Shown: one piece after another, positions 156 through 14,781 of the stretch
How the letters are laid out: each line of letters starts with the position of its first letter
Numbering within the stretch: the stretch's first letter is position 1
IMG/VR virus record: IMGVR_UViG_3300002835_000038
Span: 1-64,000 of that record
Strand: one strand, 5' to 3'
DNA: 64,000 nt
Origin: an uncultured virus (IMG/VR IMGVR_UViG_3300002835_000038)
Lineage: Duplodnaviria > Heunggongvirae > Uroviricota > Caudoviricetes
Made by a program: the position numbers and the translations under genes
Notes under the pieces: generated by a model
What the model was told of the DNA's origin: nothing
What the model saw: the letters and a program-made list of their open reading frames with translations, nothing else
The model's database searches: none

Positions 156-320
156 TAAAAGATGATGAATGACTTTATCAGGAATCTCGCCTTCGACTTC
201 ACACACCATTAGAGAGTCGGGAATTACGACAATACAATTAAGAATGTCAACCTATCCTTAGTGTGTACCCTTGCGTCACGTCTCTCCACGCTTATCATTC
301 TACGCTTTGTATCACCTTTT
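156..320 (-). ncRNA. Unknown structured RNA between tRNAs (~165 nt)
   Basis: Terminal stem AAAAGGTGAT/ATCATCTTTT; inner hairpin CGACT/AGTCG; GC-richer than background; no convincing ORF. Confidence 0.5.
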
Positions 321-321
321 G

Positions 322-406
322 TAGTCGGGGCGGGAATCGAACCCGCACGGACGCAATGTCCATTGGATTTTAAGTCCAACGTGTCTACCTATTCCACCAC
401 CCGACC
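322..406 (-). tRNA. tRNA-Leu(UAA)
   Basis: Cloverleaf with long variable arm; loop CTTAAAA. Confidence 0.95.
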
Positions 407-441
407 AAAAGTATTAACCAATAAATTAAAGAACATTCTAG

Positions 442-513
442 TACTGCCACGGGGAATCGAACCCCGCTTTTATGGATGAAAACCATAGGTCCTAACCGAT
501 AGACGATGGCAGC
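442..513 (-). tRNA. tRNA-Glu(UUC)
   Basis: Cloverleaf; loop TTTTCAT. Confidence 0.93.
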
Positions 514-519
514 GGTTTG

Positions 520-594
520 CGGTGCGTATGGGATTCGAACCCATGACCTCTGCCGTGACAGGGCAGCATTCTAACCAGGCTAAACTAACGCACC
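520..594 (-). tRNA. tRNA-Asp(GUC)
   Basis: Cloverleaf; loop CTGTCAC. Confidence 0.95.
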
Positions 595-597
595 ATA

Positions 598-735
598 CCC
601 CCTTTATTAACCCCATTCTGATTATCTTTATACTACAATCAGACGTTACTAATGTAGTCCTTATCGTATTGTCTGACACCACTATCATATTACCCTAGTG
701 ACTTAGGCATCCACAGTGAGGAGTTAGGGGGACTA
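598..735 (-). ncRNA. Unknown structured RNA (~140 nt)
   Basis: Closing stem CCCCC-TAACTCC/GGGGTTA-GGGGG; internal complementary pairs TCAGAC/GTCTGA, ACTACA/TGTAGT, TCTGATT/AATCAGA. Confidence 0.4.
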
Positions 736-743
736 GTATTATA

Positions 744-965
744 AAACCAACAGGACTATCAAACACCTTTACTCCGTAGTCTTAGTATTTTATCGACTTT
801 AAGAGATCTGTACTCGATTCTTTTCGATTAGACTTTTAATCCTTATCGATTATACCTTTCCTCCCAGACTTCGTATTCTTTGCGCAAACCTATCCGAAGT
901 TCAAAGGGTCAGGTCCTTTAGTGATGAAAAATTAGTCATCTTATTTGATAGAACACTGTTGGTTT
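744..965 (-). ncRNA. Unknown structured RNA (~220 nt, long closing stem)
   Basis: AAACCAACAG/CTGTTGGTTT (744-753 with 956-965) stacked on CTATCAAA/TTTGATAG (756-763 with 944-951); follows a boxA-like motif. Confidence 0.5.
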
Positions 966-974
966 AAATATGTT

Positions 975-983
975 TCAAAGAAC
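975..983 (-). promoter_or_regulatory. boxA-like antitermination motif GTTCTTTGA
   Basis: Same 9-mer precedes or lies within five stable-RNA loci in the window. Confidence 0.55.
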
Positions 984-1045
984 GCTTTCTTTTTTTCTTT
1001 TACAATTATAACTACTATTTTTTAAAAAAACAATAGATATGACAA

Positions 1046-2211: not shown

Positions 2212-2822
2212 TATATTTTTTCTTCTTTAAACATTTTTTTTATTTCATCAGATAGTTTGTCATAATCCATATCAAATTTATCTGACATAGAGTTAAGTAT
2301 TCTTTTATTACCGTATGGTGAATTTCCAGGAACTGACCAATTCCTACTAGTCTTTAAATGGTTATAAAATAATACATATGCATTTGCCTTTTTAGTATAT
2401 GTGGGTACATCAATGGGTAGATTCCATTTTTTAATCATCTCCACACTCCTCTTCTCATTATCCAATTCCAAATCTCTGGCAATATCAATGTGTGATCTAA
2501 TACCCACAATTTTTTTATCTTTGTTACCTAACCATTCCCACATTTTTTCTAAGGAAACACTTGCCCTATCCCACAACTCTATTTTATCTAACCACTGTGT
2601 CATATGACAGAACTCGTGAACTAAAAGTTCTAAATAATCTTCCCTACCTTTGGCATACGCCAGTGTTGGCGGTTTGGTATTATCATCAAAAAAACCTGCA
2701 CATTTAATATTGTCAGTTAACTTGATATATCTCCTTTTGTATTCTTTTACTTTCACACCATGTTTCTTACATTCACTCTCTACATACTTAATGAAATTTT
2801 CCACATTAGTGTTTTTACTCAT
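2211..2822 (-). CDS. Hypothetical protein with HEXXH (possible zinc metalloprotease)
   Basis: LLVHEFCH plus downstream ELDNE; start moved to MSKNTN, overlapping the stop of the upstream small ORF. Confidence 0.6.
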   Translation of the reverse strand: MSKNTNVENFIKYVESECKKHGVKVKEYKRRYIKLTDNIKCAGFFDDNTKPPTLAYAKGREDYLELLVHEFCHMTQWLDKIELWDRASVSLEKMWEWLGNKDKKIVGIRSHIDIARDLELDNEKRSVEMIKKWNLPIDVPTYTKKANAYVLFYNHLKTSRNWSVPGNSPYGNKRILNSMSDKFDMDYDKLSDEIKKMFKEEKI

Positions 2823-2973
2823 CTTTGTCTTTGTTTTTATGTTTACTCTTTCTATTATATAAATTTTTAGGGGTTTCTGATCTAGCCACAAAACGACCAT
2901 CAAAGAAACCATCCTCTATTTGTTGGTGTCTTTCTTGAGTTCTTTTCATTTTATGTTGATCATACTTTTTCAT
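2815..2973 (-). CDS. ArfA-like ribosome rescue small protein (52 aa, not in ORF track)
   Basis: Hand translation MKKYDQHKMKRTQERHQQIEDGFFDGRFVARSETPKNLYNRKSKHKNKDKDE; YxRKxKH basic motif as in ArfA; fills an operon gap. Confidence 0.55.
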   Translation of the reverse strand: MKKYDQHKMKRTQERHQQIEDGFFDGRFVARSETPKNLYNRKSKHKNKDKDE

Positions 2974-2977
2974 AACC

Positions 2978-3604
2978 TTAAAATTCTTTGTCTAACTTTT
3001 CAATCTTTTCAACTTCTGGTTTATCCATCACACATTTAATTTTTGTGGATGAGTCATCTTTTCTATGTGAAAAATGAATATGAGAATCAACAGTCATATC
3101 TGATCTATGCGGATTTCTTTTCCACCTTTCATTTCGTATTACTTGTACAATATCAAATGACATTCTACAACTATCATCCACATTTTCATTATAGATACCC
3201 CAAGAACCATTTCTAGTCATTAATGGATCATTAATCAACATGTTACGAGGTTGCACTAACATCTCATCAACATTATCTCTAATATTATGATACCTACCAT
3301 AATCAGTACTCAATTTCACATCTTTTAGTTTCTTCCATTCCTTTTCCTTACACCAATGTCCAGTTTCTTTACTAACAGAACCATTTATTAACGCCTTACC
3401 ATCTTTAATCTCTAATATTTCACCTTGTGGAGTTCTATCCCCAACCTCTGGTTGTCTTTTAGGTCTACAAACTTCCTCTAAATATACTTCAAAGGTTGGG
3501 TGATCTTTGATAACCTCAAATTGCCCAATACCTACTCTAGAGTAAAAGTCTAATGCCTTTTCTACTAACCAAAGTTGTTCGTCAGTTAATTCTAAATTAT
3601 TCAT
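2978..3604 (-). CDS. Hypothetical protein
   Basis: 208-aa ORF in tightly packed operon. Confidence 0.8.
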   Translation of the reverse strand: MNNLELTDEQLWLVEKALDFYSRVGIGQFEVIKDHPTFEVYLEEVCRPKRQPEVGDRTPQGEILEIKDGKALINGSVSKETGHWCKEKEWKKLKDVKLSTDYGRYHNIRDNVDEMLVQPRNMLINDPLMTRNGSWGIYNENVDDSCRMSFDIVQVIRNERWKRNPHRSDMTVDSHIHFSHRKDDSSTKIKCVMDKPEVEKIEKLDKEF

Positions 3605-7587: not shown

Positions 7588-7737
7588 ATAATTAGTTTAC
7601 CTAATTTTTAATTTTTTAAAGATATTGATTATCTTTTTGAGATTGAGATTACTTCTCCTACTCAAAAGAAAGTTCACATTTTCTTTTGATGATTTAAACG
7701 TTCCTTTTACTACTACTTTCATATTATTTATTTTTTG

Positions 7738-8310: not shown

Positions 8311-8344
8311 AAAAACAAAAAACCCTAAGTTTTCACTTAGGGTT
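8311..8344 (-). terminator. Attenuator intrinsic terminator 1
   Basis: AACCCTAAGT-GAAA-ACTTAGGGTT followed by TTTTGTTTTT. Confidence 0.9.
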
Positions 8345-8371
8345 CCCATTTATAGTATTAAAATTTTACGA

Positions 8372-8470
8372 TTAACTAATGTGACATACCCTAAGTATTG
8401 GATGAAGCGAATCCGCCCCTTCCATTTTCGTCTTAACGACCTCTAGTCTGTATGTGAATGTAGTTAACAT
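8372..8470 (-). CDS. Leader (attenuator) peptide 1, 32 aa: MLTTFTYRLEVVKTKMEGADSLHPILRVCHIS
   Basis: ATG to TAA between promoter and terminator; contains ACTTAGGGT complementary to the terminator 5' arm; core codons match downstream tRNAs. Confidence 0.8.
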   Translation of the reverse strand: MLTTFTYRLEVVKTKMEGADSLHPILRVCHIS

Positions 8471-8928: not shown

Positions 8929-9001
8929 AGTTTTTGATTTATTTAGACAAAGATATGAATAATTTTCATTCTACCAAATTTTTTAACGTTATTTTTATTT
9001 G

Positions 9002-9075
9002 AGGTCAGAGTGAGATTCGAACTCACGAAAAGTAGTTTTGCAGACTACCCCTTTAAACCACTCAGGCATCTGACC
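9002..9075 (-). tRNA. tRNA-Cys(GCA)
   Basis: Loop CTGCAAA; U73. Confidence 0.95.
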
Positions 9076-9144
9076 GTTAGTTCACTAAACTATATTTTGC
9101 TTAATAAATTACATTTGTTTATTGTTGCAAAAATAAGTTTATCG

Positions 9145-9217
9145 TACACTCTGAGAGATTCGAACTCCCATCTTATGATCCGTAGTCATAGGTTCTGATC
9201 CATTGAACTAAGAGTGT
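9145..9217 (-). tRNA. tRNA-Arg(ACG)
   Basis: Loop CTACGGA. Confidence 0.93.
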
Positions 9218-9219
9218 AT

Positions 9220-9294
9220 TGGTAGGGATGGGTGGAGTCGAACCACCGAGACTACTGTATAAGAGTAGCATGTTCACCGTTACATCACATCCCC
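9220..9294 (-). tRNA. tRNA-Ile(UAU)
   Basis: CTACT-CTTATAC-AGTAG anticodon arm; encoded CCA. Confidence 0.85.
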
Positions 9295-9302
9295 ATATTT
9301 TG

Positions 9303-9389
9303 CGGAAAGAATAGGATTCGAACCTACGGTACCCTTTCAAGTACAACACCTTAGCAGGGTGCCACAATAAACCGCTCTGTCATCTTTCC
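9303..9389 (-). tRNA. tRNA-Ser(GCU)
   Basis: Long variable arm; loop CTGCTAA. Confidence 0.95.
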
Positions 9390-9393
9390 ATTA

Positions 9394-9467
9394 GGTGTAC
9401 GATGGGACTCGAACCCACTATTGACGGAATCACAACCCGACGCCTCGACCACTTTGGCTTCATACAC
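9394..9467 (-). tRNA. tRNA-His(GUG)
   Basis: Loop TTGTGAT; C73. Confidence 0.9.
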
Positions 9468-9469
9468 AG

Positions 9470-9540
9470 TTGTCTCCCAAGGATTCGAACCTCGATTAAG
9501 TGGACCAAAACCACTTGTCCTGCCATTAGACGAGGAGACA
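9470..9540 (-). tRNA. tRNA-Gln(UUG)
   Basis: Loop TTTTGGT; U1-A72. Confidence 0.93.
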
Positions 9541-9547
9541 TTATTTG

Positions 9548-9636
9548 TCTAAGTGATGGGACTCGAACCCACATAGAACTGTTACATTCATTCCTGATCC
9601 CAAATCAGGTCGGCGACCAATTGCCTACACACCTAG
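9548..9636 (-). tRNA. tRNA-Pro(UGG), extended variable region
   Basis: Loop TTTGGGA; C1-G72, A73; ~19-nt variable region. Confidence 0.85.
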
Positions 9637-9642
9637 TTATTG

Positions 9643-9715
9643 TGGAACAGGTAGGAATCGAACCTACATTGTCGGATTTTCAGTCCGATGCCTTGACCAA
9701 CTTGGCAACTATTCC
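9643..9715 (-). tRNA. tRNA-Phe(GAA)
   Basis: Loop CTGAAAA. Confidence 0.93.
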
Positions 9716-9720
9716 ATTTG

Positions 9721-9791
9721 CACACCCCCAAAGATTCGAACTCTGACCAAACGGGTTGGAGCCGTTTATGCTACCGTTACACTAGAGATGT
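9721..9791 (-). tRNA. tRNA-Trp(CCA)
   Basis: Loop CTCCAAC. Confidence 0.9.
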
Positions 9792-9795
9792 GTAT

Positions 9796-9870
9796 AAATG
9801 TTCAGGAAGACTTTTTTTACATTTCCAAATTAGTAGTTTTTTATTTGCTGAAATCTTCCTTTTAACATTT
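9796..9870 (-). ncRNA. Small stem-closed RNA (candidate Y-like RNA, copy A)
   Basis: AAATGTT/AACATTT and AGGAAGAT/GTCTTCCT stems; loop begins TTCAGCAA..AAAAACTAC, as in the RNAs beside the TROVE gene. Confidence 0.55.
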
Positions 9871-9871
9871 G

Positions 9872-9954
9872 TGAGGGTAGTAGGATTCGAACCTACTCAG
9901 TCATAGACAACAGATTTACAGTCTGCCCCAACTCTCCAACTTTGGCGTACCCCC
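9872..9954 (-). tRNA. tRNA-Tyr(GUA)
   Basis: Long variable arm; loop CTGTAAA. Confidence 0.95.
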
Positions 9955-9966
9955 ATTAATTATTTG

Positions 9967-10040
9967 CGATTCAGGCAGGACTCGAACCTGCGACAACTTG
10001 ATTAACAGTCAAGGGCTCTAACCAACTGAGCTACTGAATC
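9967..10040 (-). tRNA. tRNA-Asn(GUU)
   Basis: Loop CTGTTAA. Confidence 0.95.
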
Positions 10041-10058
10041 ATTTAATTTTACATTATA

Positions 10059-10067
10059 TCAAAGAAC
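10059..10067 (-). promoter_or_regulatory. boxA-like motif GTTCTTTGA
   Basis: Spacer after the first tRNA of operon 3. Confidence 0.55.
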
Positions 10068-10077
10068 TTATGTTCTG

Positions 10078-10153
10078 TCGGTATGGTAGGGATCGAACCT
10101 ACGAATCTTCTCGATATCAGCGAGATGCCTTAAACCTACTTGGCCACATACCG
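10078..10153 (-). tRNA. tRNA-Ile(GAU)
   Basis: Loop CTGATAT. Confidence 0.92.
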
Positions 10154-10162
10154 TAATAAATT

Positions 10163-10193
10163 AAAAAACCCCAACTCATTTCTGAATTGGGGT
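10163..10193 (-). terminator. Attenuator intrinsic terminator 2
   Basis: ACCCCAATTCA-GAAA-TGAGTTGGGGT followed by TTTTT. Confidence 0.9.
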
Positions 10194-10219
10194 ACTTTAA
10201 TCCTTTATTTATTTATCTA

Positions 10220-10318
10220 TCAAAATTTAAATAACGACATAACATACCCCATCCTTCCGTAAATATAAAACGGTTGACACCACTGTATCGGATTACTATG
10301 TATGTTATTCATTATCAT
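10220..10318 (-). CDS. Leader (attenuator) peptide 2, 32 aa: MIMNNIHSNPIQWCQPFYIYGRMGYVMSLFKF
   Basis: ATG to TGA between promoter and terminator; TGGGGTAT complementary to GTACCCCA of the terminator 5' arm; core codons match downstream tRNAs. Confidence 0.8.
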   Translation of the reverse strand: MIMNNIHSNPIQWCQPFYIYGRMGYVMSLFKF

Positions 10319-10325
10319 TTTTTAC

Positions 10326-10380
10326 TGTTTTTAATTAAATATACACAAATATACAAAAGTTTAATTAAAAAGTCAAATAT
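10326..10380 (-). promoter_or_regulatory. Promoter of tRNA operon 3 (TTGACT-17 nt-TATATTTG)
   Basis: Near-identical to 8483-8537. Confidence 0.8.
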
Positions 10381-10454
10381 ATTTTTAAAATTATTTTTTT
10401 TAAAATAAAAAACCCCTAAAAATAGGGGCTTAACAAAAATTTATTTTTTGTTTT

Positions 10455-10637
10455 TTACTTCACCTCCACCGATGTGCTATCTACATTTTCGGTTCCTGCG
10501 GTATCATCAGAAGCAGTACCTGCATCTGTTGCCACACCATTTGTAGTTGCATCATTAGTTGTTGAATCTGATTGTGTGTTTCCACCACAAGACACTAAAA
10601 GTGTCATAACTGTCAATACCAAAAAAACTTTTTTCAT
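10455..10637 (-). CDS. Small lipoprotein
   Basis: MKK-hydrophobic-LVSC lipobox; low-complexity acidic and Thr-rich tail. Confidence 0.75.
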   Translation of the reverse strand: MKKVFLVLTVMTLLVSCGGNTQSDSTTNDATTNGVATDAGTASDDTAGTENVDSTSVEVK

Positions 10638-13791: not shown

Positions 13792-14286
13792 TCAAATCAT
13801 TAGATAAGGTTTCCATTCTTCATTGATGTTTCCGTTCATTCTTTCTATGAATTCTATATATGTTGGTGCATATGGTTTCCTAATCATTTCCATATTAGAC
13901 TCTTCAGGTGTTTTATCACCTTTATTAAGATTACACTCACCACAACAAGTTACTAAATTTTTCCAACTATTCCCACCACCTCTTGATTTTGGTAGTACGT
14001 GATCTAATGTCAGATTCTTATTTGTACCACAATAGACACACTTATGACCATCCCTCCTAAATATGTTATACCTACTTAATGGTACTTTTTTATAAGGTAA
14101 GAAAATGTATCTCATTAATCTAATAATTGTTGGTCTCTTAAAAGTTTTTACGGTAGATACAATAGGGTTATTATCGTCAGAAAAAATAATTTCTGCCTTA
14201 CCCTTGTAGACTAATTTAAACCCCCTTTTCAGTGTTGTAACATTCAATGGGGTGTAGTCATTATTTAGAACTAGTACCTTTTCCAT
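13792..14286 (-). CDS. HNH endonuclease
   Basis: RDGHKCVYCG..LTLDHVLPKSRGG..WKNLVTCCGECNLNK. Confidence 0.93.
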   Translation of the reverse strand: MEKVLVLNNDYTPLNVTTLKRGFKLVYKGKAEIIFSDDNNPIVSTVKTFKRPTIIRLMRYIFLPYKKVPLSRYNIFRRDGHKCVYCGTNKNLTLDHVLPKSRGGGNSWKNLVTCCGECNLNKGDKTPEESNMEMIRKPYAPTYIEFIERMNGNINEEWKPYLMI

Positions 14287-14410: not shown

Positions 14411-14413
14411 TAG

Positions 14414-14781
14414 TGGAGGTGGAGGGTTTCGAACCCTCGTCCTTCCCATGTCCAAATGGATTTCTACGTGTGTAGTCAGTTTTTCTAAACTAACAAAATA
14501 GACAGTTCCCTTATTACACTGTTCGGTTTACTGACAACTAATCCTCAGTCTTCTTATTTATAAAGGTTCAAAAAGATAATAACCTGTATGTATTACTCGA
14601 TTAGGCGAATACAACCTCTTCTTTTGCAATTGTACCTACAGTACCATTCAAAAGAATGTTTTCGTTTAGGGCTAAGCCCATGTTTGTATCGTTGCCGACT
14701 ATTGTTTTTTTTAGATTAACGCTCTACCACGACACGCTTACGCCTACTCTTCTTACGCGAAGTCAAATCCAATACACCCCC
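14414..14781 (-). ncRNA. ssrA: tmRNA
   Basis: 5' GGGGGTG..GGATTTGAC; 3' GGTTCGAAACCCTCCACCTCCA; G3-U70 alanine determinant; internal tag ORF 14601-14696. Confidence 0.93.

Follow-up and report, generated by a model that had tools for sequence, protein, structure and literature searches.

Why phages carry arrays of tRNA genes is an open question, whose candidate answers are codon supplementation, the replacement of degraded host tRNA and escape from tRNA-cleaving defences; in the literature searched we found no account of how such arrays are switched on. The locus described here poses this second question in a concrete form: twelve tRNA genes lie behind a short open reading frame and a predicted terminator, and a preliminary description, made from the letters alone, had read the arrangement as an attenuator whose leader codons match the tRNAs that follow. 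The window is the whole stretch of DNA analysed, 64,000 nucleotides from an uncultured virus.

The window has a GC content of 29.9% and carries its genes mostly on the minus strand, with 23 tRNAs and a tmRNA called by ARAGORN; a 24th tRNA, Ser(UGA) at approximately 8283-8197, was missed by the default setting and seen at a relaxed threshold. The tmRNA (14413-14781, minus strand; tag AKEEVVFA) is adjoined by an HNH endonuclease gene at 13792-14286. PHROGs matches among the window proteins comprise a sigma-70 factor, DnaJ, two DNA methylases, peptidoglycan hydrolases, primase, and SbcC/D-like and exonuclease proteins, and 5 of the 10 window proteins scanned had no PHROGs family. IMG/VR holds near-identical and related contigs (L008, L012) of up to 254 kb, and the nearest virus record has 58% of the sampled window words in common. 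Sixteen lake-water DNA runs, two of which are candidate sources, contain 92-98% of these words, and three RNA runs plus one presumed RNA run contain fractions of 0.42, 0.10, 0.09 and 0.07 (contigs only). From this setting we infer that the source is a large uncultured phage. The pattern TTTG-N19-21-TAnnTTTG, whose upstream TTTG we take to be the second element of a Bacteroidota-type promoter, was found at 12 places in the window, each on the minus strand, where 2.4 would be expected; 0/100 shuffles reached that number. TAnnTTTG is the -7 box of Bacteroidota-type promoters according to the accessible part of PMC9723704. Because of these promoters the host is presumably a member of the Bacteroidota; a search with the sigma factor (best match, 37% identity) pointed to no host.

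Read along the minus strand, the unit begins with a putative Bacteroidota-type promoter at 10346..10377 (TTTG, a 20-nt spacer and a TAnnTTTG box), from which transcription is predicted to start near 10341. The untranslated leader that follows (10319..10345) is A-rich, lacks a Shine-Dalgarno sequence and has an A at -3, a base shared by 7 of the 10 homologues described below and reported as a positive determinant in Bacteroidetes in the available part of PMC6847099. The leader ORF, MIMNNIHSNPIQWCQPFYIYGRMGYVMSLFKF (10220..10318), ends in a stop at 10222-10220; the preliminary description had placed the element correctly and had listed fewer codons than the 32 that the ORF contains. Thus a promoter match closely precedes a short ORF whose start is usable, as would be expected of an attenuator. 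Codons 2-20 (10259..10315), hereafter the sensing window, overlap segment 1 (10300..10308), the 5' arm of a predicted 9-bp protector that is kept in 10/10 homologues. Segment 2 (10239..10254) holds the overlapping protector 3' arm and antiterminator 5' arm, segment 3 (10183..10195) the antiterminator 3' arm and the terminator 5' arm, and the predicted intrinsic terminator occupies 10163..10193 (11-bp stem, GAAA loop, U run; -17.2 kcal/mol). It ends about 10 nt 5' of tRNA-Ile(GAU), the first gene of the array (9001..10153, minus strand; ARAGORN and Rfam), which runs Ile(GAU), Asn, Tyr, Trp, Phe, Pro, Gln, His, Ser(GCU), Ile(UAU), Arg(ACG) and Cys, from 10153 down to 9001, in the order previously given. 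We refer to this array as array 2 and to its leader as leader 2.

The 9-mer GTTCTTTGA, presumably boxA-like, lies 3' of the first tRNA (10059..10067, minus strand). Its pattern has 10 matches in the window against 3.05 expected, and the sites at 983-975, 8309-8301, 10067-10059, 14795-14787 and 22546-22538 (minus strand) put one at every tRNA cluster and one immediately before the tmRNA. A boxA-like 9-mer is found in all ten homologues, after the first tRNA in nine and after the terminator in one. It likely supports Nus-type antitermination across the untranslated tRNA array. Between the site at 983-975 and tRNA-Asp, about 400 nt (595-1000, minus strand) hold no long ORF, and Rfam yielded nothing of note there with E as high as 5; this spacer is possibly an unknown non-coding RNA, and similarly long spacers stand 5' of Leu(UAA) in L069 and L071.

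Do the codons of leader 2 match array 2 more closely than chance would allow? On the minus strand, codons 2-20 of the ORF opening at 10318 read exactly as previously listed, with ATA at codons 2, 6 and 11 and ATT at codon 19. Eighteen of the 19 belong to the set read by the downstream array, the one outside it being ATG at codon 3, and 11 of the 12 tRNAs have a cognate codon, Arg(ACG) being unmatched. ATA makes up 42% of the Ile codons in the window genes, and tRNA-Ile(UAU) lies at 9220-9294 (minus strand). The preliminary description had called the match unlikely by chance, and the probability has now been computed. With standard wobble, and Pro counted as all four codons, array-2 codons are 38.3% of the 17,457 codons in 61 window ORFs, and the binomial probability of at least 18 matches in 19 is 3.9e-7. 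None of 2,000,000 simulated 19-mers had 18 matched codons (46 had 11 distinct tRNAs), no stop-free base shuffle among 200,000 did (83 had 11 distinct tRNAs), and 0/16,237 windows from real genes attained either value; a null that draws 12 of 24 decoding boxes at random gave 5e-5. The first 19 codons of the 61 real genes contain a mean of 7.2 matched codons and a maximum of 11/19. Free of any choice of boundary, the whole leader ORF has 21/31 matched codons (P ~9e-4). When all 1,795 starts followed by 20 open codons were ranked over every frame of the window, the leader came first, and second was its own codon-3 ATG. Under five nulls, the codon match is far beyond chance.

A second unit in the window serves as an internal control. 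This sister attenuator (8316..8470, minus strand), about 1.8 kb further on and with the same promoter type, would consist of a leader ORF at 8470-8372 (MLTTFTYRLEVVKTKMEGADSLHPILRVCHIS) and a terminator at 8345-8316. It precedes Ser(UGA) (~8283-8197) and Val, Thr, Lys, Met, Ala, Gly and Leu(UAG) (8196-7433, minus strand); in L004-L006 the sister array additionally has Asp and Glu tRNAs, and the sister core LEVVKTKMEGADSL samples all 10 types of this fuller array by codon 22. Counted over codons 2-20 as array-2/array-1, leader 2 has 18/1 and the sister leader 2/15 (Fisher 4.9e-7); over the whole ORFs the counts are 21/8 versus 9/19 (Fisher 3.5e-3). Taken alone, the sister leader matches in 17/21 codons (P 0.007), a less extreme value since its codons are common ones, and its antiterminator is weaker against shuffles (2-138/500). 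Because the sister leader is a built-in negative control, we regard the locus as a clean case. On inspection, no comparable leader was noticed at the third tRNA cluster (Asp, Glu, Leu-UAA, Arg-UCU). Within the sister array, a short tRNA-Glu remnant (~8113-8080) separates Val from Thr, in the position that an intact Glu gene occupies in relatives, and a short AT-rich ORF-like stretch starting MKVVVKGTF lies between tRNA-Ala and tRNA-Gly (7590-7735, minus strand), with a similar one in the corresponding position of L072.

Pattern and protein scans returned 181 loci, many on identical contigs. They resolved into 10 distinct versions of leader 2, including the window's own, that are 67-87% identical to it and form two clades of five each. 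Nine of the 10 versions were reached by patterns built on tRNAs only and one (L024) only by leader patterns; of the loci found with the Arg pattern, 13/26 were examined, the others being contigs already in the set. Repeat copies of one contig or sequence were left out, as were L001 and L009 (other arrays) and L014, L017 and L018 (HNH relatives with no tRNA in the DNA retrieved). Also set aside, as chance matches, were 65/86 and 8/22 loose-pattern loci that lacked a tRNA within 450 nt, together with L128, L150 and L171, where the match falls within a tRNA region without leader 2. An exact leader pattern had 0 matches in GTDB genomes, and the only matches that blastn found for 9000-10460 among 50,697 phage records were the size of a tRNA.

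The leader ORF is open in 10/10 homologues (28-36 codons), its sensing-window indels are of 3 and 6 nt, and 7 variants are synonymous, a pattern that points to conservation as a reading frame. All five clade-A leaders cover 11/12 tRNA types, and all five of clade B cover 12/12 through an added CGT for Arg(ACG). The order of residues shifts with the set kept (QWCQPFY versus QWYQPCF); in L004-L006 the Phe codon after Pro is lost by a 6-nt deletion, and a Phe codon stands at codon 10 instead. From codon 4 to the end of the sensing window, every codon of each homologue lies within the array set, and 14/14 alternative residues, counted as distinct states per column and not as tree events, are in the set, against 9.1 expected from single-base changes (P ~0.002). 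At codons 2-3 several alternatives fall outside the set, and beyond the sensing window 15/32 fall inside. Segment 2 is invariant as RNA yet is read in two frames across the clades: GGGTAT(G/A)TTAT encodes G-Y-V/I-M in clade A and K-G-M-L in clade B. Since this stretch is kept as RNA while its frame differs, the 3' part of the leader appears to be structural and the 5' part to be read as codons. The bodies of the tRNAs have diverged strongly between homologues, with gene order kept. Wherever the core motif occurs (85 times in 182 sequences, many from the same contigs), a tRNA lies no more than 500 nt away. As the homologues form only two clades, few independent events underlie these comparisons.

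An invariant feature of the peptide bears on a different reading, in which the leader is a general sensor of translation stress (antibiotics, ribosome damage or a QWxQP arrest motif), of the toiL type, and the codon match has arisen as a side effect or is left over from an earlier state. Q-W-x-Q-P is invariant in 10/10 homologues, with neighbours that reorder and a 3' part that switches frame. The available parts of two reports also lend this reading some weight, one describing a uORF that responds to multiple antibiotics (PMC12121999) and the other a tRNA array of Anabaena that responds to translation inhibitors (PMC8421152), and leaders are unchanged where arrays have decayed. It would, however, leave unexplained that the codon sets of the two leaders are complementary and each suits the array behind it, that residue swaps are confined to the set and that reordering keeps it; moreover, the sister leader shares no peptide motif with leader 2. 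A general stress sensor is in our opinion quite unlikely, and we favour a leader read for its codons.

How closely, then, do leaders follow their arrays? Glu codons are absent from the three clade-B sister leaders, and so are Glu tRNAs from the arrays behind them (the array is full in L069, ended by the contig end in L070 and decayed in L072); in clade A, the sister leaders do contain Glu codons, and 4/6 arrays include a Glu tRNA. This co-variation of Glu codon and tRNA is a single event. Elsewhere the correspondence is looser: Arg(ACG) has no codon in 5/5 clade-A leaders; L002 and L047 have an intact leader but 3 and 2 detectable tRNAs, respectively; the window's sister leader retains Asp and Glu codons for tRNAs that sit in the third cluster; and the sister leader of L069 lacks an Ala codon though an Ala tRNA follows. 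In L062, five array-2 types (Cys, Trp, Asn, Tyr, Gln) stand behind a sister leader. From these cases the codon-array match seems to be of ancestral origin and to be maintained slowly; arrays would recombine faster than leaders.

Several irregularities were seen in these arrays. The L062 genes, at 2537-3073 in array orientation, are second copies in place of Met, Ala, Gly and Leu; they differ in sequence from the tRNAs of its first array and reflect either recombination or a chimeric assembly. In L002 and L047, the interval from the terminator to tRNA-Arg(ACG) holds atypical tRNA-like stretches that ARAGORN did not call; their anticodon-like loop contains TAT or GAT, and their extra arm is long. 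ORFs, some of them HNH-like by eye, are inserted within the array of L002, L006, L019 and L025.

If the leader is read as codons, its RNA should offer a switch on which the position of a ribosome can act. All helices and ribosome effects given here are in silico folds that ignore the bulk of the ribosome. The three helices of the preliminary description were recovered in these folds: a predicted protector (arms 10308-10300 and 10247-10239), a predicted antiterminator (10251-10244 and 10195-10188) and a predicted terminator (10193-10183 and 10178-10168, then a U run), the last two being mutually exclusive, as in known attenuators. The leader fold has a z of -6.1, with 0/200 shuffles as stable. 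The protector keeps its 9 bp in 10/10 homologues, and one pair is changed on both sides in three related sequences. The segment 2/segment 3 duplex (-17.0 kcal/mol) is attained by 5/500 dinucleotide shuffles, and in each of the 10 homologues the antiterminator duplex is reached by 0-5/500. Terminators were folded singly, since RNAalifold on a MAFFT alignment misaligned them between clades; one is predicted in every homologue (-12.9 to -18.6 kcal/mol) with changed stems, and the antiterminator arms differ by clade, tracking these changes. The distance from stop codon to terminator is 25-27 nt in 10/10, despite ORFs of 28-36 codons.

Folding was repeated with a ribosome mask of 7 nt past the A-site codon, an assumed value, on all 10 versions of leader 2 and 7/9 sister leaders. 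In the window the antiterminator is predicted to form with a ribosome at any position through codon 20 and to fail from codon 21. Across the ten homologues, the last A-site codon permitting it is 20, 18, 18, 18, 20, 21, 21, 21, 21 and 21, and the run of matched codons ends at 20, 18, 18, 18, 20, 21, 22, 22, 22 and 22; the antiterminator limit equals the run end in 6/10 and is one codon short in 4/10, and a mask of 4 or 10 nt moves it by one codon. The control codons would therefore be placed, relative to segment 2, within one codon of the predicted limit in 10/10, and the sensing window is one that the modelled RNA geometry sets as well, not only the eye.

The energies of these folds indicate what kind of switch this could be. 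Before segment 3 is made, the window's leader forms a hairpin of -24 kcal/mol, of which the protector is a part. After segment 3 has emerged, the protector (-28.5 kcal/mol) and the antiterminator (-30.2) are 1.7 kcal/mol apart in untranslated RNA, and at full length protector plus terminator (-45.2) is favoured over the antiterminator (-34.4). In 9/10 homologues, no ribosome is needed for the antiterminator to form at the intermediate stage (0.95-1.00). In these models the protector is nearly tied with the antiterminator once the terminator 5' arm is made, and its dominance does not extend to every stage. A ribosome at codons 4-18 reduces the terminator lead from 10.5 to 0.5-2.4 kcal/mol, and in the homologues a stalled ribosome reduces it from 4.3-11.8 to between -2.5 and 5.5. 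Because the terminator is still favoured at equilibrium, the switch would have to be kinetic, decided by the order of folding.

At equilibrium nearly all masked folds favour the terminator, which could also be taken to mean that it is constitutive and leaky, or that the region encodes a small RNA or peptide, with an ORF that has no control over the tRNAs. Such a terminator would give no reason for a conserved antiterminator whose arms follow those of the terminator, for the fixed distance from stop to terminator, or for the coincidence of boundaries and the codon statistics, and on these grounds we rejected it. As to a peptide gene, tblastn of the leader peptide gave no match at E 10 among 50,697 phage records, and it has no PHROGs relative. 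We hold this reading to be highly improbable. The choice between terminator and antiterminator is also the output of T-box RNAs, and the leader contains a UGGN; triplets resembling codons might then bind tRNAs directly, free of ribosomes. This is barely conceivable, and it was rejected, for Rfam found no T-box or leader family on 10163-10345 even at E up to 5, the triplets stay in one frame from ATG to stop, and the indels are multiples of three. With a ribosome-read attenuator retained, the families of amino-acid operon leaders (trp/his/thr/ilv/phe) were considered as well; what lies downstream is 12 tRNAs and not genes for amino-acid synthesis, import or charging. As the target is tRNA genes and Rfam gave no leader match, the unit does not belong to these families.

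The chance tests, the complementary sister leader, the ten homologues and the ribosome-masked folding together support the earlier attenuator reading at the level of sequence and models. The unit is very probably an attenuator of some kind, and probably a leader-peptide attenuator that has tRNA genes as its target and senses slow decoding; the virus likely makes the array tRNAs when ribosomes slow on the leader codons. Which shortage slows them is a separate matter. The natural signal of the same attenuator could be amino-acid starvation, or a general shortage of nutrients in the lake host. Mechanically any stall in the sensing window would do, as the folds and the accessible part of PMC4046918 suggest, and the match is mostly visible at the level of amino acids, with thin evidence at the level of codons. 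What such a signal would turn on, nevertheless, is tRNA genes, which supply no amino acids. Besides, Ser is AGY at all five aligned Ser positions of leader 2 versus TCN in 9/9 sister leaders, and Arg in clade B is CGT, although CGT, CGC and CGA are only 10.6% of Arg codons; the choice of Ser and Arg codons fits the isoacceptor in each array. The Ser contrast is only suggestive of matching at the isoacceptor level, as AGY makes up 35% of Ser codons. We consider an amino-acid or nutrient signal unlikely. More tRNA remedies a loss of tRNA and not a shortage of amino acids, and for this reason loss of functional tRNA during infection seems the most likely signal.

For a leader-peptide attenuator that senses tRNA loss, we propose the following sequence of events. 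A host-type RNA polymerase would start near 10341, where the promoter match places it, and a ribosome would translate the leader ORF, as the conservation of its frame suggests. With fast decoding, the ribosome at codon 21 or later is predicted to cover segment 2, or else to pass it and leave it to be captured by the protector; in both cases the terminator would form and the transcript would stop about 10 nt 5' of tRNA-Ile. If any of the 11-12 sampled tRNAs were scarce, cleaved or uncharged, the ribosome would wait at or before codon 20, segments 2 and 3 would pair ahead of the synthesis of segment 4, and transcription would continue into the tRNAs, with the predicted help of the boxA-like site through the array. 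This outcome would depend on folding kinetics. New tRNA would restore faster decoding and turn the array off, a negative feedback. Untranslated RNA is predicted to terminate, with 10.5 kcal/mol in favour. The sister leader would act likewise for the other ten tRNA types, and the two sensors would hence split most of the genetic code.

In its widest form, the proposal is that large Bacteroidota phages carry two leaders that act as decoding test strips, sensing cut or depleted host tRNAs and transcribing the matching array on demand; we offer it tentatively, as something possible rather than probable. If true, it would represent an RNA-only, feedback-controlled counter-defence at the level of individual tRNA species, for instance against anticodon-nuclease defences. 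A codon-indexed attenuator would state in sequence which shortages the phage expects, would bring tRNA genes, besides enzymes, under attenuation by means of a sensor of unusual breadth (19 codons for 11-12 tRNAs), and would constitute a compact biosensor for tRNA damage.

Two units outside the homologue set resemble this design. In L001, an unrelated AT-rich viral contig, a 40-codon ORF at 522-705 (plus strand) that encodes 19/20 amino acids (no Cys) precedes a 30-tRNA region, with an antiterminator and a terminator. In L009, an element of 68% GC, a 38-codon ORF at 271-460 (plus strand) with 19/20 amino acids (no Tyr), likewise with antiterminator and terminator, heads a large tRNA array; its leader had no match in plasmids. 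The L009 element is a possible route to a culturable host for the same design, and the two units (38-41-codon ORFs) suggest that the design is widespread.

Among known systems, in the open full texts of PubMed Central and bioRxiv, a scope with subscription journals largely outside it, we found no leader-peptide attenuation of tRNA genes. In T-box riboswitches (RF00230), tRNA status sets terminator against antiterminator in a ribosome-free manner, with one tRNA each. The unit is predicted to resemble them in that tRNA status decides between the two structures; a T-box stem I or antiterminator bulge gave no Rfam match at the gathering score or at E up to 5. The pheM-pheST attenuator of E. coli places a component of the decoding machinery under leader-peptide control and, unlike the present unit, concerns one amino acid and a protein-coding target and is chromosomal. 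Antibiotic-sensing uORFs are represented by whiB7 and ermC. As is predicted for the unit, uORFs of the toiL type convert stalls at many positions into one output; as described in the available part of PMC12121999, toiL differs in controlling translation and Rho-dependent termination of a protein gene, with no match between codons and target.

Inducible expression of a tRNA array is known from the Anabaena trn operon under TrcR (available parts of PMC8421152 and PMC10272220). There, as proposed here, a spare tRNA array is silent until translation stress; what those parts describe, in contrast to the unit, is a ribbon-helix-helix repressor with no codon matching, and the main text of PMC8421152 contains 0 occurrences of 'attenuat', 'leader' or 'terminator'. 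On the side of defence, PrrC, PARIS and Schlafen are listed as tRNA-cleaving systems in the accessible part of PMC13056530, and the tRNA-Tyr of a T5-like phage offsets tRNA cleavage by retron-Eco7 in that of PMC11555353, where 'attenuat' and 'leader' have 0 occurrences. In the T5-like case, as given in the same part of PMC11555353, a strong promoter over-produces the tRNA, whereas here supply would be on demand. Rescue from cleavage by a phage tRNA gives a motive for making phage tRNAs when host tRNAs are cut.

The closest likeness is to the leaders of amino-acid operons, of which trpL and pheL are attenuators and the thr and ilvGMEDA leaders are multivalent. As in these, and in the Salmonella his leader (available part of PMC4046918), the unit has a short ORF with control codons and a predicted protector, antiterminator and terminator, and, judged by its sequence and folds, it has the testable structural features of leader-peptide attenuators. 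According to the same part of PMC4046918, many slow codons relieve attenuation at the his leader, and leaders that are not translated terminate; that an extra tRNA (argU) altered its output for 16/20 AGA/AGG pairs is only a lead, because the direction of the change is worded inconsistently there. Leader-peptide attenuation is considered likely in Flavobacterium, and is predicted in Flavobacterium psychrophilum, in the accessible part of PMC9723704. Amino-acid leaders and, by prediction, the unit are alike in that a stall leads to read-through and lack of translation to termination. Amino-acid leaders have enzymes as targets and runs of one to three amino acids; here the target would be a tRNA array, and 11-12 tRNA types are sampled about once each. 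Unlike amino-acid leaders, this system likely belongs to a phage, in which two sensors would divide the code and the product would directly reset its own sensor.
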